From NCBI GenBank assembly GCA_012838235.1, contig DUPQ01000071.1, positions 33,653-97,652 of the forward strand: a stretch of DNA of 64,000 nucleotides, given 5' to 3'. Made by a program: the position numbers and the translations under genes. Numbering within the stretch: the first letter of the stretch is position 1; each line of letters opens with the position of its first letter. The stretch comes from Clostridiaceae bacterium. Lineage in GTDB: Bacteria > Bacillota > Clostridia > DUPQ01. Below are positions 9,165 through 26,602 of this stretch, piece by piece. The notes beneath the pieces are model-generated. The model worked only from the letters and a program-made list of their open reading frames with translations. It made no database searches and was not told the origin of the DNA.

Positions 9165-9197
9165 AGTATCGGTTTTATATGTTATAATAGCCTAGTC

Positions 9198-9270: not shown

Positions 9271-9280
9271 CCATAAGAAG

Positions 9281-9502: not shown

Positions 9503-9573
9503 GGGAATATTGCATATAAAAAGATATACATTTATAATGAAAACAGCCATGAAAGGAAAGGGGCAATAGGTTT

Positions 9574-10038
9574 GTGAGTGTAAAATTTCGCTTTATTCAT
9601 GACGATGCACTGGGTAATGATATAGAAATTACCGTACGTGCCGCGGAAAAAAATGAACGAGTGGAAAAGCTGTTATCAAAACTTGCGGAGAGTTCCGGCC
9701 AACTTATATCCGGTCAGATTCTTTCGGAAAAGTACGATATAGACACTTCCGATATCATTTTGGTTATGCGAGACGGTCGTTATGTTACTGCGAAAACAGT
9801 CAGAGGAGACTATATTATAAAAGATGCACTGACACGCGTGGAAGAAAGCCTCAACCCCACATGGTTCGTAAGAATATCGCAGTCGGAGATAATAAACCTT
9901 AAGTATCTTAAGAACTGGGATTTCGTTGGCGGAGGAATAATTCAGATAAAGATGGAGAATGGAATAATAACTCACTCATCGAGGCGATATGCTACACAAA
10001 TTCGCGATATGCTTCTTAAGAGGAGGGCAAAACGATGA
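9574..10038 (+). CDS. Standalone LytTR-domain DNA-binding regulator (no receiver domain)
   Basis: 154 aa. The C-terminal LytTR domain (RDGRYVTAKTVRGDYIIKDALTRVEESLNPTWFVRISQSEIINLKYL) aligns with the AgrA/LytR DNA-binding fold. Its stop overlaps the next gene (ATGA). Confidence 0.8.
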   Translation: MSVKFRFIHDDALGNDIEITVRAAEKNERVEKLLSKLAESSGQLISGQILSEKYDIDTSDIILVMRDGRYVTAKTVRGDYIIKDALTRVEESLNPTWFVRISQSEIINLKYLKNWDFVGGGIIQIKMENGIITHSSRRYATQIRDMLLKRRAKR

Positions 10039-10517
10039 AAAAACGTTTGATTATCAGATCTCTTATCGGACTTGTTGTCGGCGCACTGGCAGTACATGCA
10101 ATTACTCTGTTTGTTAATTACATCAGCAGAGGTGAAATTTTAATCTGTATGCCGGAACTTATAGAAAAGCTCGGACTTACCAAAGCCATAATTGTTCAGA
10201 CCGTACTCGGTGCGCTGATCAGCATGATAGCCATCGGCGGAACGGTTCTGTTTGACATAGAAACATGGAGTTTACTGCGTGCCACTGTGGCGCACTGTGC
10301 ACTTATACTGTTTTCATATTTGACGGTAGGATTATTGTTGAGTTGGTTTTCTTTCCACATAATTCCTATCCTCATAATGACGGGCGGAATAATAATTGTC
10401 TATGCATTGATATGGCTCATAATGTACGCTATCTGGAAAGCGGAAATACGAAACATGAACCGCCTTACGGAAGAGTACAAAAAAGATATAGAAGCAAGCG
10501 AAGATCAATCCTCATAA
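10035..10517 (+). CDS. DUF3021-like polytopic membrane protein, putative membrane-bound partner/inhibitor of the LytTR regulator
   Basis: 160 aa with four predicted TM helices. Translationally coupled to the LytTR gene. Same architecture as the HdrRM/BrsRM LytTR regulatory systems. Confidence 0.7.
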   Translation: MKKRLIIRSLIGLVVGALAVHAITLFVNYISRGEILICMPELIEKLGLTKAIIVQTVLGALISMIAIGGTVLFDIETWSLLRATVAHCALILFSYLTVGLLLSWFSFHIIPILIMTGGIIIVYALIWLIMYAIWKAEIRNMNRLTEEYKKDIEASEDQSS

Positions 10518-10615
10518 AAAGTAAAGCATATAACAAAAGGTCGGCCGGAAGGGTCGATTTTTTTGAGCAAATTTTCAGTGAAACTACACTTTATCACTGT
10601 TTTTTAACCGTTTAT

Positions 10616-10638
10616 GACGGGAAATTACCGAATACGAC
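10616..10638 (+). promoter_or_regulatory. Conserved 23-nt box GACGGGAAATTACCGAATACGAC upstream of giant SLH gene A (copy 2 of 3)
   Basis: 22/23 identical to copy 1. Embedded in a ~55-nt module (10596-10652) shared with the gene B promoter and flanked by the 9-nt direct repeat AACCGTT(T/G)A. Ends 98 nt upstream of ATG 10736. Confidence 0.5.
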
Positions 10639-10735
10639 CAAACCGTTGAATGTAGAAAAAACAACCGATATACTCGAGTCAGATCTCAACGATTTTTTAA
10701 TTGATTTAATATTTGTCGGTACGAGGAGGAAGAAA

Positions 10736-13700
10736 ATGAAAAACATTGGAAGAAGATTTTTTGCATTACTGATGACATTGGTAATGTTACTTACCATGAT
10801 ACCCGCAACGGTAACTGCCAATCCGGGTGAGCCGGAAGTTTTTATTGTAGCGGGAAGAATAACCGATAGTGTTACAAAGAAAGGCTTAAGCGGAGCAACG
10901 GTAAGATTGGGAGAATTCTTTGATACTACCGATGCTTTCGGGTATTATCAGATAGATGCCCGTGAGGCGGGAACGTATGAAATATCCGCATCACTTAGAG
11001 GCTATACTACGGTTACGGATAACAATTTTGAGTTAAACGGCACAAAAGACTGGTTTGCCGAACTGACACTTGATTCAGACCCCTGCATAGATATATATGC
11101 ATCGGTCAAGTGTGTTTATTCCGGTATTCCGCTAAAAGGAGTAGAGGTTCGGGCAAGACACAGTAGCGAGGGACTATTTTACGATAATACCGACAGTGAC
11201 GGAAGTGTCGTATTCTACAATTTACCTAAGGGAAAATATACTTTTGAGGTAAACGTAAACGGTAAGCCGGGATGGGAAAGCTATATATCAGGTGAATATG
11301 ACGTAACACAGGACCACTTACTAAACTGTTCTTTAAAGCCTAAATATAAAAGCCTTACGGTGGAAACCTACGGCTTTTGTGCTTTTACCGAACAGGATGA
11401 CAGTCCTTTACGTAATGTCTATGTAAGACTTCACGGCCTGGATCCTAATGATCACGATGTGGAGCTCATATCTCCCGCACCGATAAAAACGGGAGAAGAC
11501 GGAACGGTGGTATTTGATAAACTTGTACCTATTGATTGGTTAATAGAAGTATATTCACCGGGATATGATCCCATGGAAAAGTTAGTAAAAGCCAAAGCTG
11601 ACGGAACATTTGAACAGGACACGGTTCGAATGGATATGGAATTTCATCCCGGAACATTGATTGCAAAGCTTGATTCGCTATATGATGATGACGAAAGATA
11701 TTGCGGTCTGGAAGTACATCTTTGCGGTAATGATGCCATAACGGAAGGTTTGACACGTACCATCACTGTCGAATCATGGCATAGGCCTAAAAGGGCTGCT
11801 ATTTTTGAAAACCTTTTACCGGGGCAATACAAGATTTATACTTACGGAAGTTGCGAGAACATTGTGCGAATAAATGCGGGAGACCTACAGGTTTATTTTA
11901 ATCGACTTGTGGATTCGTCGATTTCGCCTCCAAGAAGGCTTTCCATAACTTTCCAGGGTGAGACACAGGCTGTTGCCAAGATGGGTCGAGAAACAGAGGT
12001 GGAATTACCTTTGGATGTTGAAAAGGCAAATTATTCGGGTTTCCTGCATAAAATAGATATGGATGAGGAAGGTGCTCTTATAACTTCGCCTGCCGCCAAT
12101 ACCGTAATGACATTGCATCCTTCGGAATATTTTCCTCAGAATCCCGAATACGGTAAAACCTATACCGTGACAACCGATGAGTTCGGTTTCTATTCTTTCA
12201 ATGTTTACCCCGGATTATATGGTGTGACCGTTTCCGATATGGACGATTACTGGGGAGCTTTTGCAACCTATCGTCAGCGCTACGGAATGGTTGAACAAAG
12301 TGAAGAAGGCGGAGAACTGGGTAAACCTGGAAAAATGGGCGGATGGCCATATTATCAGAAATGGCAAGGCAGCCACGATTCGGCCATAGCTTACATGGGG
12401 TATGGTAAATTAGACGGTGGTAAAAAATACACAAACAATACAGGATATGCTGACATAGGCGGGGTGCCGCTCTCCTCCGGAATTACCGAGGGAGACCTGT
12501 TTATGAAAGAAAAAGTCTGCTCTATAAGTGTGGAGACTTTACCTGCTAGAATAGAAAAAGGGTGGTATGCTGTTACCGGTAAGATAAATGATGGGAATCC
12601 TGACAATCATGAAGCTGCCAATTATGAGTTTTCAAAAACATGGTTCGATCTTGCCAACTTCAGAACGGAGCTGTCCTGCGGCGAGGAAACAATTGATAAC
12701 GATACATCTCCTTTTCCTCACAAATTTACTCAACTCCAACCGGGAACTCATGATGTCAATTTCACTAAAAAAGCCGGTGCAACAATGCCGGAGTACAGCT
12801 TGCACCGCAAAGGAGTATCCGTACAGGAATATCATCAAAACTGGGAAGGAACCGATGTCACATTTTATGATTTTCCTGCACCCGGTATACTTCCTGCAGA
12901 ATTTCCCTCTGATTACTGCAGCACATACGATACTGTCTGGCCTTGCGGGGAAATGGATATTGATATTGATGTACGCGCTGAAGAGCTGACTCGTTGGACG
13001 GCTCCGAGAGACCACCTTGAAGAACATGTTTATTATTTTGTAGAACTGGATAAGAATACAGGTGAGGGCGAATATAGATGCTATAAAGACTCTGACTACT
13101 ACGAATTAAATAGGCATTTTTACGGATGGACTTCGGATATAATTCCCAATAAACTGTTTTCCGCAGAGGATGTGCATTGGTATGGTACTATTTCCTATCC
13201 GAATTATGTACCGATCACCCTATATTTCCACTTACTTGCCGGCTACGAATATAAGTGGGATGGTAGTAGGGAGTTTTGGGAATTTATACCCAGTAGATGG
13301 TTTGAGATGACATATGATCCGAGTACAGGAGAGGGAGGTCCTACAATATATATTGGCGGTCCTAAGAATAATGTACGTGAGGGTTTAGGTAATGCTCCGA
13401 ACATTTTAAGTCCTTTCAAGGCAATAATAAAGGCTAAAAACTACTATACAGGAGAAGAAATAACGGGTATATCTTTTGTTAATGACACAGCCGGACAGGT
13501 CTTTTTTTCCGAAAACGAATATGATAATCAAATCTATTTAAAGGAAACATTTTCAAATGATGACATAAATGTGGGTGACAAAAACCTTATGTTCCATCAA
13601 GCCTCCTTTGAGCCAGATTTTAGAGGAGACAATCGTACAGTCACCCTTACTTTATACATGGTGCCGAATATAGGGCTGGATTTAACTGTAAAAGACAATA

Positions 13701-16700
13701 ACGATAATCCGGTGCGGGGTGCTACGGTTCAGTTGAGGAGCGCTAAAGGTTTGGATGAGCTTCTGAGAACAGATGATTTAAATGGCGTGGTCAACGTAAA
13801 AAATCTCAGAGACGAATGTTATACCTTAATTATAGATGCTGCGGGTTGTAACACATATACTTATGAGTTGACAGCCGATATGTTACAACCTGACGGGTAT
13901 GGCTGGATGGTCTTTATACACGAAGCAATATTAACACCGATAACAAGACCGGAAGTTTCCAATGAAAGCTTTGACCGTTTCGGAGGTTTTTTACCCAATG
14001 TCAGTCGTATGAAAGCACAAGACACATATGAGCTTGTTACGGGAGATACACCTGCAGGCGAAGCTCTTACACTGACTGTGGAAGCCGCTTTGAAACAACA
14101 GAAACAAGGTGATGTTTTCGATAAGGTTGTGGGCGTATACATTGTAGATGCCAAGAAATTTGAGACTGATGATAAATCCCGTGAAGGGGAGTATGCCGAG
14201 ATAACGGAATTACCCGACCCGGGATGTCCGGTTGCTATGAGAGAATGGCTTAGAAATCTTAATAACCGTTCAACCGGTCTGGAAAATGTATTCTTCCAAT
14301 ACTTTGATGCGGAAAGCATTACTCAAAGAGATGACGATTCCGGCATGGCCGACTTTAAAGGCGAGATAATGTTATACAATCTTCCTGCAGGTCCCTTCAA
14401 ACCGGTATTCATAGTTGTAACGGAAAAAGGTGCCTATGATGTTTATGCACCGGAAATCGATGAAGATAAGCAACTTGTAGGCTTAAGAAAGAGCGGATTT
14501 CTTTCCTTTTTCATAGCTGCAGCAGATATGTATGCGGTAGCACAAACCGGACCTGCCGTACCGCTACACTTCATACTTCCTTTACTGGAAATTACACCTG
14601 CTCTTAGCGAAGCGGGAGAGATGTTGGAATTCGATGCTTCAATAGATATAGATGACTACAACCAGGGATATATTAAATATGAATACAGTATAGGTGTTAA
14701 CTGCGATGCGGGAACATCCACTCCCGGAGGAGCTCCGGGTTCGGCATCATCTTATCTGCCGGCCAAGTTGTCATTGGAAGTGGGAGGCTCGATAAGCACA
14801 TCGGTATCGGGTAAAGATTTAACTATTGAAGATAAATTTACCGCTAAAACCGGAGCATCGGCCGATACCGATAAATACCTGCCTGCATTCATAAAAGACT
14901 TAGCTACTATGGAAGTAAAAGCTACTGCACAAGCCTTCTCCACAGCCGCTATAGAATACAAAAACGATGCCGAGATTAAGTCCCATGAAAACAGCATAGG
15001 TATTACCGGAGAATTGGAAACCAAGACCAATGTCAGCGGAGTGGAAGCTGCCGGCAAATTCTTAGCCGGGGGCGTATTGGCACCCGTATTCAAGGTAATT
15101 AAAAAATGGGGTATTGATATAGGCGGTTGTATAGATGCAAATGCAGGTATAGGGGCAACCGTCAAATACGGCTTGGATGCATATACCGACGGCGGAAACT
15201 TAAATTCAATAGAAGCTGATATAGACTTCGGTGTAGCGGCCAAGTTAGGAATTTACGGCAATGTTTGCGGAGGTAAGTATGGCGGTGCCAGAGGAACCTT
15301 AGGTTTCGGCGGCAGCCATTCCAACTTTAGCAGTTCCATGATGACACTTACATTAAAGTTCGTCTATGATGCCAAAGAGAATGAATTCCGTATGGAACCT
15401 GCGGAACTTATCGGTATGTGTGAAGGTGATTTTGAAGCCTTCTTAAAGACACCCGTTAAAGACTTTAATATTAAATGGCATTTCTCTGTATTTGATGTTA
15501 ACATGCAGTTCGGTACGGAAACCAAGTTTACGCTTACACCGATAGGTAAAGTATATAGGGAGATAGACCGTGAAACCTTCGGAACATCCACCTTCATGGC
15601 TGATGAAGCATCAGGCATAATGGTAAAAGACTATCTCAGTCTTGCAACTTATGCCACAGATGAAAACAGCGGAAACATCCTCTACACCGACCTTGCAAGC
15701 CAAGGCGGAGATATGAGATTGCAACTCAGCAGTTACAGTGCGGGCACCTGGAAGCAACCGATAACGATACTTACAACCGACGGAACATTAGGCAGTTATG
15801 ATTTATTGACATTACCTAACGGTAAGATATTGATAACATACAACTTAATATCTAAAGGACATATGAACAGTATGTTCCCCGATTCCGAAACCAAATATAC
15901 ATTGGGAAGCATAGGTGCAAACGGATGGGTAGAAGAAGCCTCAGGAACAATAGAACAATTAACAGGTTCTTATGCTTTCAGCTGTGATTTAGCAGGATCT
16001 TACTTAGTCTGCCGTTTAACAGGCGGTACAGGAGCGGAAGGCTTCAAGATAGTAGGTTACAAATGGAACGGAGCAGGCTTCGGTGCTGCACAAACATTGG
16101 GATATGCCGCTACTTATGACATGAGCGTTGCGGCAACCGATAACGAACTGGTAGTTACCTGCATTGACGAATGGAAGGAACTGCAGGCAATCAGCTGGAC
16201 AGGTGATGTAACAAACACAACGATAGCAGAGGATGTAGGCTTAGTTTTAGCCATGACATCTGATGCAGACGGATACTACCTTGTTTACGAAAATGGCGGA
16301 GCAGTGGACTTCTACACAAGAGGTATTAATCCCGGCTCTGCATGGACAAAGAAGGGTACACCCGTTTCCAATGTAAGTGCAATTGAAATGGACCTTGCAG
16401 TTAACGATGACAAACTGGTATTAAGCTTCATAAAGCCTTCGGAAGCACACTTTGATGACAATAACAAACTGGTAGTAGGAAACGAAGGTATTGCAAGCGT
16501 TACACTTAGCAAAGACGGAACGCTGTATGATGAACAGAGGACATATTTGGAAAACAGTCAGTTCTACAGAAATCTTAGTATTGTATGTGTCAACGGATTG
16601 GCTTATGCATTTGCCGAAGATTTGTATGAAGATACGGCGGATTTGGTATTTGTAAAGATTTACGATACCGATGCACCCGTAAACTTCTTCGGTACAGTTA

Positions 16701-18421
16701 CCATAACGGGAACCGAAAGATTCAATGAGCGACTTACGGCAGCTGTAAGTGAAGATAACAGTGTTAGCAAGAACTTTACTTACACATGGAAACGTGAAGG
16801 AGAAGCAATAGCGACAGGTGCCACATATACAACGGTAGCTGCCGACATAGGAAAGACACTTGTCTGCGAAGTTACAACGGATGACCATCAGGGTGTGATA
16901 AGAAAGGAAACAGGTGTAATAGCCAAAGCGGCAGGACCTGCGGCACCCGCAGGACTTGCAGGTGTGGCACCTACCGTTGCCGGAGGTAATGACGGTAAGA
17001 TTACAGGAACAAATCAAACAATGGAATTCAGCCAAACGGCAACAGGAGTATATACTGCTTGTAGGGGAGCCGAGATAACAGGACTTACTGCGGGAACATA
17101 CTATGTCAGAATTGCAGGAAACAATACCACAGAGGCGGGAGCATATCGTACTGTTACGGTAGGAGCCGGAGCACAACAACCGGATGATCCTCCGATTCCC
17201 GATGACCCGGTCATTCCTGACGACCCTGTTATTCCGGATGCCGGAACGGGACAGGATACATCAAAGACCATTCCCTCAACCGACGGTGATACCCAGGTGG
17301 ATTACACTGAAACCAAGGGTACGGTATCACTGGATATATCAACTGACAAGGCTGAAGAGATTATCAACAAGAGCAAAGACGGAGATGTAGGATTTGACCT
17401 TTCCGGTGTTAAAGATGCCAAGTCTGCTGAAATGTCTAAAGAGGCATTGGAAACATTCGGCAAAGCCGATGTATCGGTAACTGTTAAGTTGCCCGAAGGA
17501 TCGGTAACTATGGATAAAGAAGCCGTAGATTCCATTGCGGAACAGGCAGGAGGAGATACGGTAAGTGTGGAACTTGCACTGGTAAAACCGGAAGAACTTA
17601 ACTATCTGCAGGAACAGTCGGTAGGAGCGGATGATCTGATTATCGATGCCAATATTACCGGCGGAGACGGTAAGAAGATAAGTACCTTCAACGGTGAACT
17701 GATAATGCGTATACCTTACAACGGTCCTCTGCCTGTAGCTGTCTGGTACTTAAATGATGCGGGAGAGCTGGAAAAGATAGATTGTGATTACGAAAACGGT
17801 ATAGTTACATTCCGTCTCAACCACCTTTCGGTATACATATTAGGACAGGATGTAAGCAGAGAAAGAGATTGGACCAATCCGTTTACCGATGTTAACAAAA
17901 ATGCCTGGTACTACAGTGCAATAGAATACATCAATAAGAATAAACTGATGTACGGTGTAGGAGATAATCAATTTGATCCTCACGGACATATGGTAAGAGC
18001 AATGATAGTAACGGTATTACATCGCTTGGAGAAGATGCCCGAACCTAAAGCATACAACACATTCGGTGATGTTGCAACAAACAGATACTACAGCAAAGCT
18101 GTCAACTGGGCTGCGGAGAACGGTATAGTAAGCGGTTACGGTGACGGAAACTTCGGGCCCAACGATCCCGTTACAAGAGAGCAGCTGGCAGTAATCTTTA
18201 TGAACTATGCCAAGTACAAAGGCTATGACACATCCAAGAGAGCCGCACTGGAAACATTTGCAGATGCAAAGAGTATATCCGGCTGGGCAACGGATGCCAT
18301 GGCATGGGCCAATGCCGAAGCTCTTATCTTAGGTGACGGCACAGGCTTGAATCCTTCAGGAAAAGGAGAGCGCTGTCATGCAGCGGCAATATTCCAGAGG
18401 TTTATTGCCAACATAAAGTAA
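10736..18421 (+). CDS. Giant (2561-aa) secreted cell-surface protein: signal peptide, several carboxypeptidase-regulatory/Cna-B-like beta-sandwich domains, low-complexity G/A/S/T-rich region, Ig-like domain, Pro/Asp-rich linker, three C-terminal SLH domains (paralog A)
   Basis: Real start is ATG 10736 with AGGAGGAAG RBS (MKNIGRRFFALLMTLVMLLTMIPATVTANPGEPEV signal peptide). The track ORF from 10265 is an upstream in-frame readthrough. C-terminal WTNPFTDV..WYY..AIEY...LMYG...F.P....MVRAMIVTVLHR and two further SLH repeats. CarbopepD_reg-like motifs occur, e.g. GRITDSVTKKGLSGATVRL...GYYQI. Confidence 0.9.
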   Translation: MKNIGRRFFALLMTLVMLLTMIPATVTANPGEPEVFIVAGRITDSVTKKGLSGATVRLGEFFDTTDAFGYYQIDAREAGTYEISASLRGYTTVTDNNFELNGTKDWFAELTLDSDPCIDIYASVKCVYSGIPLKGVEVRARHSSEGLFYDNTDSDGSVVFYNLPKGKYTFEVNVNGKPGWESYISGEYDVTQDHLLNCSLKPKYKSLTVETYGFCAFTEQDDSPLRNVYVRLHGLDPNDHDVELISPAPIKTGEDGTVVFDKLVPIDWLIEVYSPGYDPMEKLVKAKADGTFEQDTVRMDMEFHPGTLIAKLDSLYDDDERYCGLEVHLCGNDAITEGLTRTITVESWHRPKRAAIFENLLPGQYKIYTYGSCENIVRINAGDLQVYFNRLVDSSISPPRRLSITFQGETQAVAKMGRETEVELPLDVEKANYSGFLHKIDMDEEGALITSPAANTVMTLHPSEYFPQNPEYGKTYTVTTDEFGFYSFNVYPGLYGVTVSDMDDYWGAFATYRQRYGMVEQSEEGGELGKPGKMGGWPYYQKWQGSHDSAIAYMGYGKLDGGKKYTNNTGYADIGGVPLSSGITEGDLFMKEKVCSISVETLPARIEKGWYAVTGKINDGNPDNHEAANYEFSKTWFDLANFRTELSCGEETIDNDTSPFPHKFTQLQPGTHDVNFTKKAGATMPEYSLHRKGVSVQEYHQNWEGTDVTFYDFPAPGILPAEFPSDYCSTYDTVWPCGEMDIDIDVRAEELTRWTAPRDHLEEHVYYFVELDKNTGEGEYRCYKDSDYYELNRHFYGWTSDIIPNKLFSAEDVHWYGTISYPNYVPITLYFHLLAGYEYKWDGSREFWEFIPSRWFEMTYDPSTGEGGPTIYIGGPKNNVREGLGNAPNILSPFKAIIKAKNYYTGEEITGISFVNDTAGQVFFSENEYDNQIYLKETFSNDDINVGDKNLMFHQASFEPDFRGDNRTVTLTLYMVPNIGLDLTVKDNNDNPVRGATVQLRSAKGLDELLRTDDLNGVVNVKNLRDECYTLIIDAAGCNTYTYELTADMLQPDGYGWMVFIHEAILTPITRPEVSNESFDRFGGFLPNVSRMKAQDTYELVTGDTPAGEALTLTVEAALKQQKQGDVFDKVVGVYIVDAKKFETDDKSREGEYAEITELPDPGCPVAMREWLRNLNNRSTGLENVFFQYFDAESITQRDDDSGMADFKGEIMLYNLPAGPFKPVFIVVTEKGAYDVYAPEIDEDKQLVGLRKSGFLSFFIAAADMYAVAQTGPAVPLHFILPLLEITPALSEAGEMLEFDASIDIDDYNQGYIKYEYSIGVNCDAGTSTPGGAPGSASSYLPAKLSLEVGGSISTSVSGKDLTIEDKFTAKTGASADTDKYLPAFIKDLATMEVKATAQAFSTAAIEYKNDAEIKSHENSIGITGELETKTNVSGVEAAGKFLAGGVLAPVFKVIKKWGIDIGGCIDANAGIGATVKYGLDAYTDGGNLNSIEADIDFGVAAKLGIYGNVCGGKYGGARGTLGFGGSHSNFSSSMMTLTLKFVYDAKENEFRMEPAELIGMCEGDFEAFLKTPVKDFNIKWHFSVFDVNMQFGTETKFTLTPIGKVYREIDRETFGTSTFMADEASGIMVKDYLSLATYATDENSGNILYTDLASQGGDMRLQLSSYSAGTWKQPITILTTDGTLGSYDLLTLPNGKILITYNLISKGHMNSMFPDSETKYTLGSIGANGWVEEASGTIEQLTGSYAFSCDLAGSYLVCRLTGGTGAEGFKIVGYKWNGAGFGAAQTLGYAATYDMSVAATDNELVVTCIDEWKELQAISWTGDVTNTTIAEDVGLVLAMTSDADGYYLVYENGGAVDFYTRGINPGSAWTKKGTPVSNVSAIEMDLAVNDDKLVLSFIKPSEAHFDDNNKLVVGNEGIASVTLSKDGTLYDEQRTYLENSQFYRNLSIVCVNGLAYAFAEDLYEDTADLVFVKIYDTDAPVNFFGTVTITGTERFNERLTAAVSEDNSVSKNFTYTWKREGEAIATGATYTTVAADIGKTLVCEVTTDDHQGVIRKETGVIAKAAGPAAPAGLAGVAPTVAGGNDGKITGTNQTMEFSQTATGVYTACRGAEITGLTAGTYYVRIAGNNTTEAGAYRTVTVGAGAQQPDDPPIPDDPVIPDDPVIPDAGTGQDTSKTIPSTDGDTQVDYTETKGTVSLDISTDKAEEIINKSKDGDVGFDLSGVKDAKSAEMSKEALETFGKADVSVTVKLPEGSVTMDKEAVDSIAEQAGGDTVSVELALVKPEELNYLQEQSVGADDLIIDANITGGDGKKISTFNGELIMRIPYNGPLPVAVWYLNDAGELEKIDCDYENGIVTFRLNHLSVYILGQDVSRERDWTNPFTDVNKNAWYYSAIEYINKNKLMYGVGDNQFDPHGHMVRAMIVTVLHRLEKMPEPKAYNTFGDVATNRYYSKAVNWAAENGIVSGYGDGNFGPNDPVTREQLAVIFMNYAKYKGYDTSKRAALETFADAKSISGWATDAMAWANAEALILGDGTGLNPSGKGERCHAAAIFQRFIANIK

Positions 18422-18454
18422 GAGGTAATATTCTAAATAATCTTCCTCAACAAC

Positions 18455-18491
18455 AAAGGTACCATGCCGCCGCCAAAGGTGTGGTACCTTT
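18455..18491 (+). terminator. Terminator-like hairpin downstream of giant gene A: 10-bp perfect stem AAAGGTACCA/TGGTACCTTT with a 17-nt GC-rich loop
   Basis: Perfect 10-bp inverted repeat followed by a weak U-tract (GCTTTGTG). Conserved with one G-U-compatible change after gene B (26342-26378). Confidence 0.45.
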
Positions 18492-18517
18492 GCTTTGTGC
18501 ATTTTTTAACCGTTTAT

Positions 18518-18540
18518 GACGGGAAATAACCGAATGCGAC
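18518..18540 (+). promoter_or_regulatory. Conserved 23-nt box GACGGGAAATAACCGAATGCGAC upstream of giant SLH gene B (copy 3 of 3)
   Basis: Matches copy 2 at 21/23 and copy 1 at 20/23, inside the shared ~55-nt module TTTTTTAACCGTTTATGACGGG...CCAAACCGTTGAATG. Ends 86 nt upstream of ATG 18626. Confidence 0.5.
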
Positions 18541-18625
18541 CAAACCGTTGAATGAAAAAAAATGAGTGGATATAATCGGGTCAGACTTATTCATTGAGCA
18601 AATTTTTTGTATCTGGAGGAAGAAA

Positions 18626-21600
18626 ATGAAACACATGGCAAGAAGATTTTTTGCACTACTGATGACATTGGTAATGTTACTTACCATGATACCCGCAACG
18701 GTAACTGCTAATCCGGGTGAGCCGGAAGTTTTTGTTGTAGCGGGAAGAATAACCGATAGTGTTACAAAGAAAGGCTTAAGCGGAGCGACGGTAAGATTAT
18801 CAAATGCGGAGAAGGAATATACCGATACTACCGATGCTTTCGGGTATTATCAGATAGATGCCCGTGAAGCGGGAACTTATGAAATATCCGCTTCGCTTAG
18901 AGGCTATACTACGGAAATGAAAAACGATTTTGTGCTGGACGGCACAAAAGACTGGTTTGCCGAACTGATACCTGACGGAAATCCCTGCATAGATATTTAT
19001 GCCAATATCAAGTGCGTATATTCAGGCATAGCCCTGTCCGATGTGACGGTTAAGGCCATACACAGCTCTGAAGGCCCCTTTATCGGACAGACCGATGAGC
19101 ATGGAGCCTTGGTTTTTGAGAACCTACCTGAAGGAACATACACCTTTACGGTAAATGAAACCGGTCAACCGGGATGGGAAAGCTATATATCAGGTGAGTA
19201 TACAGTAATGCAGGACCAGTTGCTAAACTGTTCTTTAAAGCCTAATTACGAAAGCCTGACCGTTAAGACCAACGGTTTTGACGCTTTCTCCGAAACAGCC
19301 AACAGTCCTATCAGGAATGTTACGGTTAGACTTTACGGAGTGGACCCGAAAGATAACGATGTGGTACTGATTAAACTTCCACCGCAGACTACAGGCGAAA
19401 ACGGAACGGTGACATTTGAAAACCTTGTGCCGATAGACTGGAGAATTGAAGCATATTCTCCCGGTTATGACTCCATACCGGATATTTATTCCGATGATAT
19501 TATAGTTAAAGCTACAGAAGACGGCACTCTTGAGTTGGATAGCGTTACTTTGGATATGGTTTTTCATCCTGCAACCTTGATAGCCAATCTCAAATCTGTC
19601 TATGATGACGACGAAATATATACAGGCCTTGAGGTCAATCTTTGCGGTATAAACGGTACCGCAACCGAAGGCTTAACACGCACCGTTATCTTATTCGAGG
19701 GCGAGACGTTTGCGGAATTTACAAATCTTTTGCCGGGGCAGTACGATATTTCCACCTATGGAAGTTCCATGCGTAATATACCCGTATTGGTACAAGGTAG
19801 AAATATTTATGCAGATCCGAGTTTGGATCCTATGCAGGACGGGTATGGTGCGCCTGAAAGAATATTTTCGGTGAATTTCCAAGGGGAAATTCTCGGTTTG
19901 GCAAAACCGGATATGATACTTGAAGTGGATTTAGATTTAGAAATAGAGATGGCAAATTTCTCGGGTTATCTATATAAAACCGATATGGATAACTTCGGAA
20001 CTCTCAAGACGACACCTGCGGGCAATGTAACAATGACGCTTGTTCCGTCCGAATACTATCCTCAGAGTCCCGAATATGGTAAGACTTATACGGTAACCAC
20101 CGATGAGTTCGGTCACTATTCATTCAATGTGCATCCCGGTCTTTACGGCGTGACGGTTAGCGGAATGGATAAATATTGGGGTGCGTATATTGAATATCGC
20201 GATCGCTATACATTAACTCCGCAAATGGCAGATTGTCCAACGAGCGGCTGGCCATATTATCAAATATGGCAAGGCAGCTACGATTCTGCTCTGGCATATA
20301 TGGGTGCGGGCTGGATTTGCATGTTCACCAGAACAGGATATGCCGATCTTGGCGGTATGCCTCTTTCCTCGGGAATTACCGAGGGAGATTTGTTCATGAA
20401 TGAAAAAGTTTGTTCAGTTGAGCTGTCTGTTGACTACCAGGATAAAGATAATCCTTGGAGTCACACTATGACTATTAAAATAGATAATGAAAACAATCCT
20501 CCGGATGCTGAAGCAGTTCGCGATGCAGTATTCAACACGGCCAGCTTCGGGGCAACATATACATGCGGCGAAACCGTCATAAATGGCGATAACGATCCGC
20601 TGCCTCATATATTTGTCCGTTTGGAGCCTGGGACTTATCCTGTCAATATAACTAAGTATAAATCCGGGCCGAAATGTTACTTTGAACGCAACGAATGGAC
20701 TTTTGAAGGAGAAATAATAACTAAAACCTGGCATGGTTCGAATGTCGTGTTCTATGATTTTCCCGCACCGGGGATATTACCGGAGAATTTTCCCGTTGAA
20801 TATATGACCGAGCTCGATAAAGTCTGGCCTACGGGTAATGACAGAATAGGTCTCGGCCTTATAGGAAATGAAGCGACACCTTATGAGGCAGACTTAAATC
20901 GATATTTTTACTATTGGGTAGAGGGAAATCCGGAAGAGGGTATTCCGGGTGAGTATGAAAGCTTGGAGCAAATTCATTCCGGTGATCTTACATATACTAT
21001 ACGTGATTGGGGGTTTAGAATATACGGATGGAGTTCCGATATAATCCCTAATAAAATGTTTAACTTCTACAATGGTTTTACTCAGGAACGTTATGTCCAG
21101 ATGCTTTTGCCGGATGTGCCCGTTACATTATATATTACCAGGGATCCTTATGAAACGGGCGAAGGCTATGAGCCCAGAGCATGGTTTGAGATGAATTATA
21201 ACCCCTCTACAGGAGTGGCAAGCCCTGCTCTCTATATAGATGGGCCTACTCCGAATCTGCGCAAGGGAGCCGATGCATATCCGGCTATATTGAGTCCCTA
21301 TACATTTATATTAAAAGCCAAGCATGTATATACAGGAAAGGAAATAGACGGTATCTCTATCTTGGACGAAAACACAGGAAACACTTATGTGTCGGGACAA
21401 ACTTATAACAATGTAATAAAATTGCCGACTTACAGAAATATTGATTTTGGAGGCAGAAATCTGCGCTTCGACTACATTACTTTTATACGAGATCCCGGTA
21501 GCAGAACCGAAACATATATACTTAATGTGATTCCGAATACTGCATTGGATTTGACGGTTAGGGATGAAAGCGGTGTTGCGATTCCGAATGCCACGGTCGT

Positions 21601-24600
21601 TTTGAGGAGTCCCAACAACTTCAATGAAAATCTGAAAACAGAGGCGAATGGCACTTTGGATATAGGATATCTGAAAGATGAAAACTATACTTTGGTTATA
21701 GATGCTCCCGGCTATTGCACATACACTCATGAGTTAAAGGCCGAAACGTTGGTAAAAGTCGGAAAATGGAATACCTTCATACACGAAGCGATCTTAGTTC
21801 CTTTGGAGCGACCTGAAATCAGCGACGAAAGCTTTGATCGTTTCGGAGGCTTCCTGCCCCATGCAGGCCGTGTAACAAGCGGTGATAATTATGAACTGGT
21901 GTGCATATTAAGTCGTGAAGAAAATGCCGCAAAGGATGCTCTGACACTGACAGTCGAGGCGGCGTTGAAACAGCAGAAATATGATGAGGTTGCAGACAAA
22001 GTCATCGGCATGTATATAATTGATGGCAAGAAGTTTGAAGTAGATGACAAGTCCAGAGAGGGTGACTATACAGAAATAGATGCTGCAACACTTCCCGATC
22101 CTACATCTCCGAAAGCGGTAAAAGAATGGCTGGACAAGCTTAGAAATCGCTCCGCAGGGCTGGAAAATGTATTTTTCAGGTATTTCGATGCTGAGTGCAT
22201 AACCCAAAGAGACGACAACTCAGACATGGCAGACTTCTCGGGCGAGATAATGATATATGACCTGCCCGCAGGTCCGTTTAAACCGATATTTATAGCGGTA
22301 ACCGAAAAAGGCGCCTACAATATTTATACACCTATCATTGCTGAAGATAAGCAGCTTGTAGGTCTGAAAAAAGACGGTTTCCTTACTTTCTTCCATAATG
22401 TTACAGAGATGTATCTGGAAAAAAGACCGTTTGTACTTCCGGTATTTATAGTTCCGTTCTTTGAGTTCTGTCCTGCACTTGACGAAGCGACCAATTTACC
22501 GGAATTTACCGCCGAGATAAGCGAGGATGAAGACAACCCCGGCTATCTTGTATATGAATACAGTCTGGCTGTAACCGCGGATGCAGGAATGGCAAATCCG
22601 GGCGGTTCGGCGGGTTCTCCCACATCCTATCTGCCCGACCAATTGGGTATAGAATTCGGCGGCACATTCAGTGCGAGCGTATCGGGTAAGGATAAAAGTA
22701 TAAATAATTCGGTAGCACTCTCCGTGGGTGCGGAATTTGAAACAGAGAAATATCTTCCTGCGGCAATAAGCGATGTTGCCACCATGGAGGGAACTGCAAC
22801 GGGAACGGCTTCCGTTGAATCCGGAATCGAGTACGAAAGTGATGCCAAACCGAGTGCTACTTCATCGAATATCGGGCTTACCGGCGAATTAGCGACCACT
22901 ACGAATATTAGCGGGGTGGGTGTTGCAGGTAAATTGTTCGGTGGAGGTGCTTTGGGTACCGTGTTCAGAACACTTAAAAAGTGGGGAATTGATTTAGGTG
23001 TCACCATAGATGCAAATGTAGGTCTGAACGTTGGTGTCGGAATGACGGATAACCTTAAAACCCCAACAGCTCCGGATAAATTAGATTTAGATGTAGGTTT
23101 AGGTCTCGGTGCCAAGGCCGGGCTTTACGGCAGTGCTTTCAACGGAAGTGCCGGTGCCAGAGGAACCATAGGTTTCGGCGGTGAACACGAGAAATTTGAA
23201 AGCTCCATGATGACCTTTGATGTAAAGTTTGTCTATGATGTTGAAAAGGGAGAATTCCGGGCCGACCCGGCAACGCTGAAAGGCGTATGTGAAGCCGAAT
23301 TCGAAGCATTTATTGATACAGCCTTTTTTGCCGCAAGAAAAAGCTGGAATTTCGAGGCGTTTTCAGTAGATATGCAGTTCGGAACGGAAACAAAGTTTAC
23401 GCTTACCCCTGTAGGCGTGAAGAACCACGAGATAAATCGTGATACCTTCGGAACGTCCGAATTCTTGGCAGATGAAACTTCCGGCATAATGGTAAAGGAT
23501 TATCTGGCCCTTGCAACTTATGCCACAGACGAAAACAGCGGTAACATCCTCTATACCGACCTTGTAAGCCAAGGCGGAGATATGAGGTTACAGCTCAGTA
23601 AATTTAACGGCACCACATGGCAACAGCCCGTAACGGTAATTTCAACCGACGGTGCAATAGGCAGTTGCGATTTAATAACTCTGTCCGATAACAGAATATT
23701 GATAACATATAGTTTAATTGCAAAAGAAGATAAGTATAGTTTGTTCCCCAACTCGGAAATTCGCTATACAGTCGGAACTGTAGGAGCAAACGGTTGGGAA
23801 GAGTCAGCTTCCGGCAGTGTAGCACAATTGTCCAAATCTTATGCTTTTAAATCTTACCTGACAGGAAGCACAAATCCTCGCTTGGTATGTGCTCTTACAG
23901 GAGGAACGGGAGCGACAGGCTTTGATATTGCAGGGTACAAATGGAACGGCTCAGGTTTTGATTCTGCAGTGATGCTAAAGAAAAATGTTAAAGCTTTCGG
24001 TATAAATGTTGCAGGCAATGACAACGAAGCCGTAGTTGCTTATGTTGAAGCAACCGGTAAACTGCTCGCTCTTAGCTGGTCAGGTGTAAATACGGTAAAC
24101 GATAATGTCGTTGCTGCCGAAACAGGTTCAACATCGGCTGTTGCAGTTGATGCAAACGGTTTTTACATAGGCTGTACATCAAAGGGCAGCATTGACTTCT
24201 ACACAAGAGGTATTAGTCCCGGCTCTGCATGGACAAAGAAAGGTACCCCCGTTTCCAATGTAAGTGCAATTGAAATGGACCTTGCGGTTAACGGTGACAA
24301 ACTTGTTTTAAGTTTCATAAAGCCTTCCGAAGCATACTTTGATGCCGATAACAAACTGGTAGTAGGAAACGAAGGTATTGCAAGTGTTACACTCGCTAAG
24401 GATGGGACTCTGTATGATGAACAGAGGACATATTTGGAAAACAGTCAGTTCTATAGAAATCTGAGTATAGTATGTGTCAACGGATTGGCTTATGCATTTG
24501 CCGAAGATTTGTATGAAGATACGGCGGACTTGGTATTTGTTAAGATTTACGATGCCGATGCACCCGTAAACTTCTTCGGTACAGTTACCATAACGGGAAA

Positions 24601-26308
24601 CGAAAGATTTAATGAGCAGCTTACGGCAACTGTTAGTGAAGATAACAGTGTTAGCAAGAACTTCACTTACACATGGAAACGTGGCGGAGCAGAAATTGCG
24701 ACAGGAGCCACATATACAACGGTAGCTGCCGACATAGGGAAGACACTTGTCTGCGAAGTTAAAACGGATGACCATCAGGGTGTGATAAGAAAGGCAACAG
24801 GTGTAATAGCCAAAGCGGCAGGACCTGCGGCACCCGCAGGACTTGCAGGCGTAGCACCTACCGTTGCCGGAGGTAATGACGGAAAGATTACCGGTACAGA
24901 CAGAACAATGGAGTTTTCTCAGACTGCAGCCGGAGTATATACCGCTTGTAGAGGAGTTGAGATAACGGGACTTACTGCGGGAACATACTATGTAAGAATT
25001 GCAGGAAACAATACCACAGAAGCGGGAGCATATCGTGCTGTTACGGTAGGAGCCGGAGCACAGCAACCGGATGATCCTCCGATTCCCGATGACCCGGTCA
25101 TTCCTGACGACCCTGTCATTCCGGATGCCGGAACGGGACAGGATACATCGAAAACCATTCCCACAACCGACGGTAAAGCTCAAGTGGATTATGCTCAGAG
25201 TGAAGAGGTTGTATCACTGGATATATCAACTGACAAGGCTGAAGAGATTATCAACAAGAGTAAAGACGGAGATGTAGGATTTGATCTTTCCGGTGTTAAA
25301 GATGCCAAGTCTGCTGAGTTGTCTAAAGAGGCATTGGAAACATTCGGCAAAGCCGATGTATCGGTAACTGTTAAGTTGCCGGAAGGTTCGGTAACTATGG
25401 ACAAAGAAGCCGTAGATTCCATTGCGGAGCAGGCAGGAGGAGATACGGTAAGTGTCGAGTTAGCTCTGGTTAAACCTGAAGAACTTAACTATCTGCAGGA
25501 ACAGTCGGTAGGAGCGGATGATCTGATTATCGATGCCAATATCACCGGCGGAGACGGTAAGAAGATAAGTACCTTCAACGGGGAACTGATAATGCGTATA
25601 CCTTACAACGGTCCTCTGCCTGTAGCGGTTTGGTACTTAAATGATGCGGGAGAGCTGGAAAAGATAGATTGTGATTACGAAAACGGTATAGTTACATTCC
25701 GTCTCAACCACCTTTCGGTATACATTTTAGGACAGGATGTAAGCAGAGAAAGAGACTGGACCAATCCGTTTACCGATGTTAACAAAAATGCCTGGTACTA
25801 CAGTGCAATAGAGTACATAAACAAGAACAAACTGATGTACGGTGTAGGTGATAATCAATTTGATCCTCACGGACATATGGTAAGAGCAATGATAGTAACG
25901 GTATTACATCGCTTGGAGAAGATGCCCGAACCGAAAGCATACAACACATTCGGTGATGTTGCGGCAAACAGATACTACAGCAAAGCTGTCAACTGGGCAG
26001 CGGAGAACGGTATAGTAAGCGGTTACGGTGACGGAAACTTCGGTCCCAACGATCCCGTTACAAGAGAGCAGCTGGCGGTAATCTTTATGAACTATGCCAA
26101 GTACAAAGGCTATGACACATCCAAGAGAGCCGCACTGGAAACATTTGCGGATGCAAAGAGTATATCCGGCTGGGCAACGGATGCCATGGCATGGGCCAAT
26201 GCTGAAGCTCTTATCTTGGGTGACGGCACAGGCTTGAATCCTTCAGGAAAAGGAGAGCGCTGTCATGCAGCGGCAATATTCCAGAGGTTTATTGCCAACA
26301 TAAAGTAA
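18626..26308 (+). CDS. Giant (2560-aa) secreted cell-surface protein with three C-terminal SLH domains (paralog B of 10736-18421)
   Basis: Start is ATG 18626 (GGAGGAAG RBS; MKHMARRFFALLMTLVMLLTMIPATVTANPGEPEV). Same domain order as paralog A. The first ~130 aa and the last ~700 aa are almost identical to A. The central ~1700 aa are only ~55-60% identical. Confidence 0.9.
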   Translation: MKHMARRFFALLMTLVMLLTMIPATVTANPGEPEVFVVAGRITDSVTKKGLSGATVRLSNAEKEYTDTTDAFGYYQIDAREAGTYEISASLRGYTTEMKNDFVLDGTKDWFAELIPDGNPCIDIYANIKCVYSGIALSDVTVKAIHSSEGPFIGQTDEHGALVFENLPEGTYTFTVNETGQPGWESYISGEYTVMQDQLLNCSLKPNYESLTVKTNGFDAFSETANSPIRNVTVRLYGVDPKDNDVVLIKLPPQTTGENGTVTFENLVPIDWRIEAYSPGYDSIPDIYSDDIIVKATEDGTLELDSVTLDMVFHPATLIANLKSVYDDDEIYTGLEVNLCGINGTATEGLTRTVILFEGETFAEFTNLLPGQYDISTYGSSMRNIPVLVQGRNIYADPSLDPMQDGYGAPERIFSVNFQGEILGLAKPDMILEVDLDLEIEMANFSGYLYKTDMDNFGTLKTTPAGNVTMTLVPSEYYPQSPEYGKTYTVTTDEFGHYSFNVHPGLYGVTVSGMDKYWGAYIEYRDRYTLTPQMADCPTSGWPYYQIWQGSYDSALAYMGAGWICMFTRTGYADLGGMPLSSGITEGDLFMNEKVCSVELSVDYQDKDNPWSHTMTIKIDNENNPPDAEAVRDAVFNTASFGATYTCGETVINGDNDPLPHIFVRLEPGTYPVNITKYKSGPKCYFERNEWTFEGEIITKTWHGSNVVFYDFPAPGILPENFPVEYMTELDKVWPTGNDRIGLGLIGNEATPYEADLNRYFYYWVEGNPEEGIPGEYESLEQIHSGDLTYTIRDWGFRIYGWSSDIIPNKMFNFYNGFTQERYVQMLLPDVPVTLYITRDPYETGEGYEPRAWFEMNYNPSTGVASPALYIDGPTPNLRKGADAYPAILSPYTFILKAKHVYTGKEIDGISILDENTGNTYVSGQTYNNVIKLPTYRNIDFGGRNLRFDYITFIRDPGSRTETYILNVIPNTALDLTVRDESGVAIPNATVVLRSPNNFNENLKTEANGTLDIGYLKDENYTLVIDAPGYCTYTHELKAETLVKVGKWNTFIHEAILVPLERPEISDESFDRFGGFLPHAGRVTSGDNYELVCILSREENAAKDALTLTVEAALKQQKYDEVADKVIGMYIIDGKKFEVDDKSREGDYTEIDAATLPDPTSPKAVKEWLDKLRNRSAGLENVFFRYFDAECITQRDDNSDMADFSGEIMIYDLPAGPFKPIFIAVTEKGAYNIYTPIIAEDKQLVGLKKDGFLTFFHNVTEMYLEKRPFVLPVFIVPFFEFCPALDEATNLPEFTAEISEDEDNPGYLVYEYSLAVTADAGMANPGGSAGSPTSYLPDQLGIEFGGTFSASVSGKDKSINNSVALSVGAEFETEKYLPAAISDVATMEGTATGTASVESGIEYESDAKPSATSSNIGLTGELATTTNISGVGVAGKLFGGGALGTVFRTLKKWGIDLGVTIDANVGLNVGVGMTDNLKTPTAPDKLDLDVGLGLGAKAGLYGSAFNGSAGARGTIGFGGEHEKFESSMMTFDVKFVYDVEKGEFRADPATLKGVCEAEFEAFIDTAFFAARKSWNFEAFSVDMQFGTETKFTLTPVGVKNHEINRDTFGTSEFLADETSGIMVKDYLALATYATDENSGNILYTDLVSQGGDMRLQLSKFNGTTWQQPVTVISTDGAIGSCDLITLSDNRILITYSLIAKEDKYSLFPNSEIRYTVGTVGANGWEESASGSVAQLSKSYAFKSYLTGSTNPRLVCALTGGTGATGFDIAGYKWNGSGFDSAVMLKKNVKAFGINVAGNDNEAVVAYVEATGKLLALSWSGVNTVNDNVVAAETGSTSAVAVDANGFYIGCTSKGSIDFYTRGISPGSAWTKKGTPVSNVSAIEMDLAVNGDKLVLSFIKPSEAYFDADNKLVVGNEGIASVTLAKDGTLYDEQRTYLENSQFYRNLSIVCVNGLAYAFAEDLYEDTADLVFVKIYDADAPVNFFGTVTITGNERFNEQLTATVSEDNSVSKNFTYTWKRGGAEIATGATYTTVAADIGKTLVCEVKTDDHQGVIRKATGVIAKAAGPAAPAGLAGVAPTVAGGNDGKITGTDRTMEFSQTAAGVYTACRGVEITGLTAGTYYVRIAGNNTTEAGAYRAVTVGAGAQQPDDPPIPDDPVIPDDPVIPDAGTGQDTSKTIPTTDGKAQVDYAQSEEVVSLDISTDKAEEIINKSKDGDVGFDLSGVKDAKSAELSKEALETFGKADVSVTVKLPEGSVTMDKEAVDSIAEQAGGDTVSVELALVKPEELNYLQEQSVGADDLIIDANITGGDGKKISTFNGELIMRIPYNGPLPVAVWYLNDAGELEKIDCDYENGIVTFRLNHLSVYILGQDVSRERDWTNPFTDVNKNAWYYSAIEYINKNKLMYGVGDNQFDPHGHMVRAMIVTVLHRLEKMPEPKAYNTFGDVAANRYYSKAVNWAAENGIVSGYGDGNFGPNDPVTREQLAVIFMNYAKYKGYDTSKRAALETFADAKSISGWATDAMAWANAEALILGDGTGLNPSGKGERCHAAAIFQRFIANIK

Positions 26309-26341
26309 GAGGTAATATTCTAAATAATCTTCCTCAACAAC

Positions 26342-26378
26342 AAGGGTACCATGCCGCCGCCAAAGGTGTGGTACCTTT
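26342..26378 (+). terminator. Terminator-like hairpin downstream of giant gene B (copy of 18455-18491)
   Basis: AAGGGTACCA...TGGTACCTTT. The single A-to-G change in the left arm still allows a G-U pair, so the structure is conserved. Confidence 0.45.
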
Positions 26379-26431
26379 GCTTTGTGTGGTATAAAACATG
26401 TTTTGGGAGTACAATATAGAAAAGGAAAACA

Positions 26432-26602
26432 ATGCTTATGAAAAAGGTAGAGTTGAAGCAGGATTTTAGTAAAATGTCAAAAGAAGAAATCGATAACCTG
26501 TTAAATGAAGGATTCCTTGAATATCAAAGAGGCGAGACGGTTCCCGTACAATATGCTTTTGAAGAGATACGCAAAAAGTACGGTATTGAAAGGGATAAAT
26601 AA
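26432..26602 (+). CDS. Small (56-aa) hypothetical protein, antitoxin-like
   Basis: ORF MLMKKVELKQDFSKMSKEEIDNLLNEGFLEYQRGETVPVQYAFEEIRKKYGIERDK with GGAAAACAATG RBS-like context. Falls below the 60-aa track cutoff. The antitoxin C-terminus resemblance is weak. Confidence 0.3.
   Translation: MLMKKVELKQDFSKMSKEEIDNLLNEGFLEYQRGETVPVQYAFEEIRKKYGIERDK

Follow-up and report, generated by a model that had tools for sequence, protein, structure and literature searches.

Probable recombining ends and exchanged cassettes in a tandem pair of giant genes for putative SLH-anchored surface proteins from an anaerobic-digester Clostridia lineage

At the slpA locus of Clostridioides difficile, 13 S-layer (surface-layer) cassette types (SLCTs) have been distinguished (Dingle et al. 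2013, PMC3549603, as summarized in PMC8881574), and the variable part of the S-layer is a phage receptor (PMC10100898). SLCTs combine a conserved wall anchor with a highly variable exposed part, and discrete types are swapped by homologous recombination in conserved flanks. Here we describe a tandem pair of giant genes, A and B, in a stretch of 64,000 nucleotides (nt) from contig DUPQ01000071.1 of a Clostridiaceae bacterium (assembly GCA_012838235.1). This whole stretch is called the window, and positions are counted from its first letter. Variation in these genes is nested in two layers, deep A and B types and an inner hypervariable cassette. The locus resembles the SLCTs in the features named above, but the anchor is of the SLH (surface-layer homology) rather than the CWB2 type, the swap takes place within one 7.7-kb gene instead of in a multigene cassette at a slpA-secA2-cwp locus, and there are two tandem copies. 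For A and B, both S-layer formation and a phage-receptor role are hypothetical.

The mrp-emm-enn region of Streptococcus pyogenes also consists of tandem paralogues with common signal-peptide and anchor ends and divergent exposed parts, and recombination among neighbours and strains has given rise to chimeras and changes in copy number (PMC9993116, PMC6321872). Those genes, however, belong to a pathogen, are regulated by Mga and encode LPXTG coiled coils of ~400 amino acids (aa), whereas here beta-rich SLH proteins of 2560 aa are found in an environmental anaerobe. The sap-eag pair of Bacillus anthracis is similar in that two adjacent, co-oriented genes for SLH proteins have their own promoters, similar anchors and different remainders (PMC9802277). 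Sap and EA1 are only ~800 aa long and are exchanged by growth phase, whereas the proteins described here have 2560 aa and a C-terminal SLH part. Both Sap and EA1 have their SLH domain at the N-terminus, and we know of no report of near-identical DNA ends or of population-level cassette swapping at sap-eag. As a conceptual analogy only, the adjacent paralogues DBLMSP and DBLMSP2 of Plasmodium falciparum, a eukaryotic parasite under immune selection, have two deep forms with exchange between them (PMC10919680). The behaviour of our locus matches recombinational cassette switching and tandem M-like genes, and yet it is a member of neither the C. difficile slpA nor the M-like family, because anchor, fold and locus differ.

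A preliminary description of this DNA had placed two genes for proteins of 2561 and 2560 aa here and had estimated by eye that the identity between them depends strongly on position. Both statements were confirmed: the two open reading frames (ORFs) are intact, and sliding-window analysis showed that identity is not uniform. The first 110 codons of A and B are 91.2% identical at the nt level, and the last 702 codons are 94.0% identical (95.6% aa). In the 1,701 aligned codons of the core, identity falls to 61.9% nt and 54.0% aa (36%-73% aa per 100-aa window). The 3' untranslated region (3'UTR) and hairpin match at 77/78 bases. A two-breakpoint maximum chi-square analysis delimited the divergent block at alignment columns 115-1925, which correspond to ~11066-16310 in gene A. 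Divergence is 0.381 within this block and 0.064 outside it, with a chi-square of 827 against a maximum of 20 in 100 permutations. Two further estimates held in part. Identity does climb to 0.98 at the 3' end, but the series (0.87, 0.94, 0.91, 0.91, 0.95, 0.97, 0.98) is not monotonic, as it drops from 0.94 to 0.91. The 90-95% identity proposed for the promoter module applies to its upstream half (10600-10652, 51/53 positions) but not to the part between the -10 box and the ribosome-binding site (51/83 columns, with 12 gap columns).

The contrast extends to silent sites. Synonymous divergence (dS, Nei-Gojobori) between A and B is 0.18 at the 5' end, 1.31, 1.60 and 1.54 in the core segments, and 0.31 and 0.15 in the 3' segments. 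Four-fold degenerate sites have an identity of 0.3-0.6 within the core and of 0.74-0.96 within the ends. Because dS of the core is about ten times that of the ends, purifying selection on the protein cannot explain the identity pattern, and ends and core have different histories. In the SLH part, constraint adds to common history: the proteins are 99-100% identical there, and the ratio of non-synonymous to synonymous divergence (dN/dS) is 0.02. In the blocks that define the A and B types, dN/dS is ~0.2.

Comparison with other assemblies (comparison loci and their sequences carry L numbers, database cluster members P numbers) revealed the two layers. The outer layer (aa ~111-370 and ~1060-1860) exists as two deep core types, one in A, L1, L2 and L39 and the other in B and L3, with ~64% nt identity between them. 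The inner layer is the cassette of ~2 kb (aa ~370-1060), which is different in every lineage and for which five types were distinguished (A, B, L1, L2 and L3). Genes B and L3 are 100% identical at the nt level up to ~19700, 40-70% identical from there to ~21680, and 94-100% identical thereafter; their divergence is 0.400 within alignment columns 384-1082 and 0.009 outside (chi-square 1794). The borders between A and L2 (columns 353-1094) are nearly the same, with a divergence of 0.240 inside and 0.053 outside, and over aa 1061-1860 these two reach 95.6% identity, more than the 79-95% of the flanking genes. Between A and L39, dS is 0.016-0.037 in aa 111-1060 and 0.11-0.22 in the remaining gene. 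Further recombinants are present among the database cluster members (P0083, P0093, P0112 and P0087). The two variants of the 5'UTR sort independently of core type, and that of L039 is chimeric. Variant 1 in L003 conflicts with variant 2 in L038, which has the same gene type; as L003 starts within the repeat, its first 91 nt were down-weighted. Discrete divergent types, near-identical backbones and sharp borders, which together identify cassette switching, are thus all observed, and the swapping between strains that the preliminary description anticipated is exemplified by B and L3 (40% divergence inside sharp borders, 0.9% outside).

Contigs from many assemblies break at aa 56, ~1073 and 1240 of gene A (window ~10900, ~13955 and ~14455), and L035 ends at 13961. 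Such breaks are the expected short-read outcome of co-occurring cassettes on a common backbone. The same metagenome-assembled genomes (MAGs) can contain fragments of both kinds, some carrying the A cassette and others an L2-like one, bounded by the same break points (for example HOT71649/HOT71650 and HRU59797/HRU59804). This implies either that several cassettes co-exist in a sample or that a genome has more than two copies.

The ends behave differently from the cassette. In the SLH part, dS between A and B is 0.150, and pairs from different genomes give 0.141-0.210. At those 3' positions that distinguish A from B, each single-copy allele is pieced together as a patchwork from tracts of roughly 10-300 bp that are either A-like or B-like, and runs tests found 41, 49 and 30 runs for L1, L2 and L39, respectively, where 64 were expected (P <= 0.006). 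Three independent assemblies agree on the L1 sequence, and two on the L2 sequence. Since the 3' divergence between A and B is not below that between genomes and the single-copy alleles are patchworks, the ends behave as a recombining pool common to paralogues and strains. We interpret this pattern as exchange that resembles gene conversion and takes place across the population; nothing points to a recent event inside the window genome. A specific likeness of A and B is limited to the last ~200 nt and the terminator, where they differ at 2-3 sites, while other lineages differ at ~15. For the last 800 nt, 10 site patterns group A with B and L1 with L2, and the alternative groupings have 4 and 1.

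These last figures are what could be expected if A and B had undergone concerted evolution in the window genome, repeated conversion between them keeping the ends alike and selection keeping the cores apart; the low dS at the ends and the saturated cores would also fit. However, over most of the 3' part A and B are as divergent as sequences from different genomes, and genomes with a single copy show the same A/B patchwork, so that exchange appears to be population-wide and not especially recent here. We regard concerted evolution within this genome as improbable, though it deserves consideration. Recombination by gene conversion or homologous replacement of the central cassette, as the preliminary description had proposed, is instead favored over a uniform old duplication by the tenfold contrast in dS between core and ends, the sharp cassette borders and the 3' patchwork.

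The same description had pointed to the sap locus of Campylobacter fetus as a model. That locus encodes a surface-layer protein with one conserved end and a variable remainder, and it uses a single invertible promoter and promoterless homologues, whereas A and B each have their own promoter on the same strand and no inverted duplicates lie in the window. Programmed antigenic variation of the C. fetus sap or pilE/pilS type, relying on an invertible promoter or silent donors, would account for conserved ends and variable middles in a surface protein. Both copies, however, have complete -35 and -10 boxes and a ribosome-binding site on the + strand, and neither another nor an inverted copy is present in the 64 kb. 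Furthermore, a scan of 24 neighbouring ORFs gave no recombinase, and the poly-A run in the promoter spacer, which was inspected for phase variation, has a constant length across same-strain assemblies. Programmed variation is accordingly very unlikely here, and the analogy with the C. fetus mechanism did not hold.

The cassette differs from the remainder of the gene in the kind of changes it accumulates. Its dN/dS is 1.13 for A-L1, 0.87 for A-L2, 0.81 for L1-L2 and 0.77 for A-L39, whereas values elsewhere are 0.02-0.39. In the A-L39 cassette, 16 non-synonymous and 5 synonymous codon changes were counted. Such raised values would be expected in the cassette if the gene had duplicated recently and the cores had then diverged very rapidly by adaptation, with no recombination involved. 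This explanation is contradicted by the dS of 1.3-1.6 in the core against 0.15-0.3 at the ends, by the abrupt borders between strains and by the dN/dS of ~0.2 in the A/B blocks. To rescue it, a local mutation rate about ten times higher, affecting silent sites too, would be needed, and we give it very little credence.

We also considered the arrangement of the two genes. The tandem A+B recurs in L036 (GCA_050951265.1, a 440-kb contig), which is 99.6% identical to the window, with mostly indel differences; the 3' end of its copy 1 matches A at 2180/2180 positions, and its copy 2 is B-like throughout. The tandem is also present on the L037 scaffold (ERZ2647956), and a B fragment was found on a 2.0-Mb contig. 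In L038, an 8-kb contig from another sample, the 3' end of an upstream copy is followed by the terminator, the promoter module and a gene of B type whose cassette differs, so that a second lineage has the tandem junction as well. The promoter module of unit B starts directly after the hairpin of gene A, and this terminator-to-promoter junction (...CTTTGCTTTGTG joined to CATTTTTTAACCG...) was not found in the single-copy genomes; therefore, a mis-resolved strain bubble could not have created it. The preliminary description had named an assembly chimera as a possible pitfall. Near-identical repeat ends, the many database contigs that break there and the apparently collapsed 3' ends of L037 would be in keeping with two strain alleles of one gene misjoined in tandem. 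With the two matching 3' ends of L036, the L038 junction from a different sample with a different cassette, and the unique junction sequence, this concern has been answered, and we consider an artefact scarcely credible.

A single copy, of A type, occupies the syntenic site in three lineages (L001=L004=L020, L002=L021 and L039), whose flanks are 96-97%, 79-95% and 97-98% identical to the window, respectively. This site lies between the LytTR/DUF3021 genes and, in most lineages, ABC transporter genes. L039 equals the window minus exactly one unit (18500-26381). At the loci at hand, every B-type gene was either a second copy or lay on a fragment. A short similarity exists at the left repeat edge (10590-10612 versus 18488-18512), where CTTTATCACTG is joined to TTTTTTAACCG before A, and the terminator tail CTTTGCTTTGTGCA to TTTTTTAACCG before B. 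It may be a trace of microhomology where the unit was first duplicated.

Targeted hypermutation of the cassette, for instance by a diversity-generating retroelement (DGR), would fit the localised hypervariability but is the least plausible explanation of all, given that no reverse transcriptase was found among the 24 ORFs scanned, that Rfam matches in the window are tRNA only, that substitutions involve all four bases without the adenine bias of DGRs, and that cassettes differ by 40% plus indels across 2 kb. Without adenine bias and without a second cassette copy in the window, neither a retroelement nor a silent-cassette mechanism is supported.

The least expected part of our findings is the putative control of both genes by a LytTR regulatory system (LRS). 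An LRS is defined by a LytTR regulator paired with a DUF3021 or DUF2154 membrane protein, DUF3021 proteins being such partners, and LRS regulons have been characterised only in Streptococcus mutans (PMC6193735). In the HdrRM and BrsRM systems of that species, the small LytTR regulator and the DUF3021 membrane protein are encoded in one operon, and 9-bp direct repeats 11-12 bp apart are located 10 bp before the -35 box of the operon and of its targets (PMC6193735). An LRS regulator acts on its targets as an activator by binding such repeats, and the membrane partner inhibits the regulator. The window has the same elements upstream of gene A: a LytTR-only regulator without a receiver domain, a DUF3021 ORF, and 9-bp repeats 11 bp apart, 10 bp before the -35 box of the operon. 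In unit A, the spacing is ACCGTTTAT-N11-ACCGAATAC-N10-TTGAAT-N17-TATACT, and the repeat ACCGTTTAT resembles the BrsR repeat ACCGCTTAT of S. mutans (PMC6193735). The 32-bp operator pattern has 3 matches in the window, where 0 are expected, and every related locus has one such operator for each gene copy; a LytTR gene is present upstream of the giant gene in L001, L004, L035, L036, L037 and L039. Since the same operator precedes A, B and the LytTR/DUF3021 operon, both copies probably respond to, and are probably activated by, the adjacent system. The S. mutans targets are bacteriocin and competence genes, whereas the putative targets here are genes for giant surface proteins.

Distant homologues with 31-33% identity from three other Clostridia MAGs (L040, L041 and L042) are preceded by a comparable arrangement, in which two 9-bp ACCG... 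repeats, N12 apart, lie 10 bp before a -35-like hexamer (L040, 4876-4921 and 17334-17358; L041, 2214-2282; L042, 5876-5905). In L041, a LytTR/DUF3021 pair lies 1 kb away, and the second operator copy of L040 is located ahead of an unannotated gene at 17497. These similarities suggest a conserved LRS regulon of giant surface proteins. An activator-dependent promoter of this predicted type would count, weakly, against constitutive expression of A and B as a coat.

The reading that we prefer, and that we consider likely, is that A and B are old paralogues or stacked alleles with pooled, recombining ends and a swapped cassette of ~2 kb, subject to gain and loss of units and to LRS-type control. 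The locus comprises one or two tandem units, each made up of an LRS-type operator/promoter, a giant gene for a predicted secreted SLH-anchored protein, and a terminator, and the cores of A and B would have separated long ago. The 5' ends and the last ~2.1 kb, the latter encoding the linker, an uncharacterised domain and the predicted SLH wall anchor, would be mixed continually by homologous recombination, both between paralogues and between strains. The cassette would be replaced wholesale between strains by crossovers in conserved flanks or islands. Within one cassette type, amino-acid changes accrue about as fast as silent ones, as would be expected if diversifying pressure acted on an exposed region of the protein; phages or other biotic interactions may exert this pressure. 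Unequal crossover between the common ends would produce the presence or absence of B as exactly one unit of 7.9 kb, by gain or by loss. In this reading, the anatomy, the contrast in dS, the sharp breakpoints, the variable presence of unit B and the conserved operator are observations, whereas exposure at the surface, the agent of selection, LRS control and the choice between gain and loss of B are inferred.

Several points weigh against this reading. The sequences used for comparison all come from metagenome assemblies, and such assemblies can jump from one co-occurring strain to another where the sequence is conserved; arrangements recovered at least twice, from independent assemblies, were preferred where possible, L037 was discounted, and L039 is known from one assembly. 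The L037 scaffold itself illustrates the problem: both of its 3' ends (8391-9766 and 15567-17746) contain the same A/B mosaic, with tracts on the scale of read length, ~4x coverage and an adjoining N gap. They are probably a collapsed assembly repeat, real homogenisation in a sister strain being possible, and we rejected them as a sign of recent A/B conversion. The dN/dS of the cassette fits diversifying selection or relaxed constraint alike, and AlphaFold2 models built from five-sequence alignments, with mean pLDDT (predicted local distance difference test) values of 44.9 for aa 371-1060 and 32.1 for aa 1061-1990, lend little to the proposed exposure of the cassette. Silent, inverted or second copies of the gene or cassette, which could serve as donors of new cassettes, were not found within the 64-kb window. 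As for the regulatory part, L040 has no LRS pair within 5 kb, and the loose pattern ACCG-N16/17-ACCG is not rare in the distant loci, where the case for an operator is based on the identity of the 9-bp repeats over their full length and on where they lie with respect to the -35 hexamer.

Table 1. Positions of the genes, gene segments and regulatory signals in the window
Feature	Position	Strand	Remarks
LytTR/DUF3021 operon promoter, LRS-type operator	9471-9538	+	ACCTTATAC-N11-ACCGAATAC-N10-TTGCAT-N17-TATAAT
Small LytTR-domain regulator	9574-10038	+	154 aa, without receiver domain; Pfam LytTR E 3.3e-17, residues 54-147
DUF3021 membrane protein	10035-10517	+	160 aa, ORF overlaps LytTR gene; Pfam DUF3021 E 6e-23; presumed LRS inhibitor
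Unit A promoter module	10601-10735	+	5'UTR variant 1, GGAGG ribosome-binding site
Unit A operator/promoter	10607-10674	+	ACCGTTTAT 10607-10615; ACCGAATAC 10627-10635; -35 TTGAAT 10646-10651; -10 TATACT 10669-10674
Gene A	10736-18421	+	intact ORF, 2561 aa; mature protein ~278 kDa, pI 4.5
Gene A signal peptide	aa 1-28	+	predicted by eye
Gene A common 5' part	aa 1-110	+	
Gene A A-type N-terminal block	aa 111-370	+	
Gene A hypervariable cassette	aa ~371-1060, nt 11846-13915	+	
Gene A A-type C-terminal core	aa 1061-1860	+	
Gene A common 3' part	from ~16310	+	
Gene A three SLH repeats	~17858-18418	+	Pfam
Terminator-like hairpin 3' of gene A	18450-18498	+	-29.4 kcal/mol, z-score -5.0
Unit B promoter module	18502-18625	+	5'UTR variant 2
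Unit B operator/promoter	18509-18576	+	repeats as in A at 18509-18517 and 18529-18537; -35 TTGAAT 18548-18553; -10 TATAAT 18571-18576
Gene B	18626-26308	+	intact ORF, 2560 aa, B-type core
Gene B hypervariable cassette	~19700 to ~21680 (B aa ~365-1019)	+	recombination borders
Gene B SLH repeats	~25745-26305	+	
Terminator-like hairpin 3' of gene B	26337-26385	+	-29.1 kcal/mol, z-score -3.4
217-bp presence/absence segment after unit B	26382-26598	+	holds 56-aa ORF 26432-26602 (MLMKKVELKQDFSKMSKEEIDNLL...)

The mature proteins A and B are acidic, with masses of ~278 and ~276 kDa, and their N-termini have an identical signal-peptide-like start, which by inspection only reads MKNIGRR, the hydrophobic stretch FFALLMTLVMLLTMIPATV, and TA/NP. 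Pfam searches identified two to three N-terminal CarboxypepD_reg stretches in A and B, with overlapping SdrD_B and SpaA matches, and three C-terminal SLH repeats (E 6.5e-27 for A and 1.1e-26 for B). Matches to PDB sequences were confined to the SLH part (Sap SLH domain 3pyw, E 4e-8). In the ~2,000 aa between the CarboxypepD_reg and SLH parts no Pfam match was obtained, and Pfam, NCBIfam and PDB sequence searches together annotated only these two parts. The domain architecture of the preliminary description was thereby recovered for the CarboxypepD_reg and the three SLH domains; the Pro/Asp linker (PDDPPIPDDPVIPDDPVIPD, aa 2149-2168) and the G/A/S/T-rich stretch were also found, but the proposed Ig-like domain had no support in profile searches. 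A and B are predicted to be secreted surface proteins anchored by their three SLH repeats, which would entail CsaB-dependent binding to a pyruvylated secondary cell-wall polymer. For the G/A/S/T-rich region of A (aa ~1297-1510, window ~14625-15265), a model with too little confidence for interpretation predicts a row of unusually long beta-hairpins with strands of 13-19 residues.

An exhaustive search with aa 501-1700 returned only 70 representatives at E <= 1e-3 among 1.84 billion clusters. Full-length representatives of the family are mostly giant; the three that were examined have surface-type repeats only, and Pfam added only Flg_new and LRR_5 repeats on the distant homologues. A Lachnospiraceae protein of 3181 aa without SLH repeats aligns to aa 38-~1450 with 25-33% identity, and the last 330 aa (uncharacterised domain plus SLH) recur on unrelated passengers with 41% identity. 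The core is an old multi-domain passenger. The organism labels of related proteins are Clostridia bacterium and Firmicutes bacterium ADurb.Bin099.

The neighbours that were scanned include the LytTR and DUF3021 genes, an ABC transporter, a MerR regulator and a GH28-like protein. The 217-bp segment after unit B is located between the gene B terminator and an ABC-2 permease gene. L037 and L039 contain this segment; it is missing from the same-strain assembly L036 and from L001 and L004, and L002 has a RelB-family gene at this place. Its 56-aa ORF has no Pfam match. A 450-aa protein with BspA-type leucine-rich repeats (LRR_5) is encoded at 42217-43569, and this repeat type is also fused to distant homologues of the giant core (P0005 and P0116). 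The remaining context is of housekeeping type, with a lipoate-protein ligase gene (5960-6961), a 2-oxoacid dehydrogenase set (E2, E3 and fused E1; 46354-51571), Der GTPase, RlmB, a SigH-like sigma factor and tRNA-Thr (9198-9273).

Surface proteins that vary through recombination have been documented mainly in pathogens, and the same population genetics, with deep allele types, sharp swaps, an elevated dN/dS and a tandem copy that is gained or lost, is seen here in an uncultured Clostridia lineage of anaerobic digesters. What is new is thus the occurrence of a known kind of surface variation in an uncharacterised family of giant proteins from such a lineage. The common ends also explain why metagenome assemblies break at fixed points within the giant gene, and the locus supplies a concrete, testable set of targets for LytTR regulatory systems. 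We tentatively suggest, as a possibility and not as our expectation, that LytTR/DUF3021 might act as a dedicated positive-feedback on/off switch for rare giant clostridial surface proteins, and that the digester population might maintain a repertoire of exposed cassettes that can be exchanged on the same anchor and regulatory chassis. If so, the locus would represent antigenic diversity in a free-living setting, with recognition by phages or partners as its driving force, and the tandem of A and B would give one cell two "serotypes" together with a template for further exchange.

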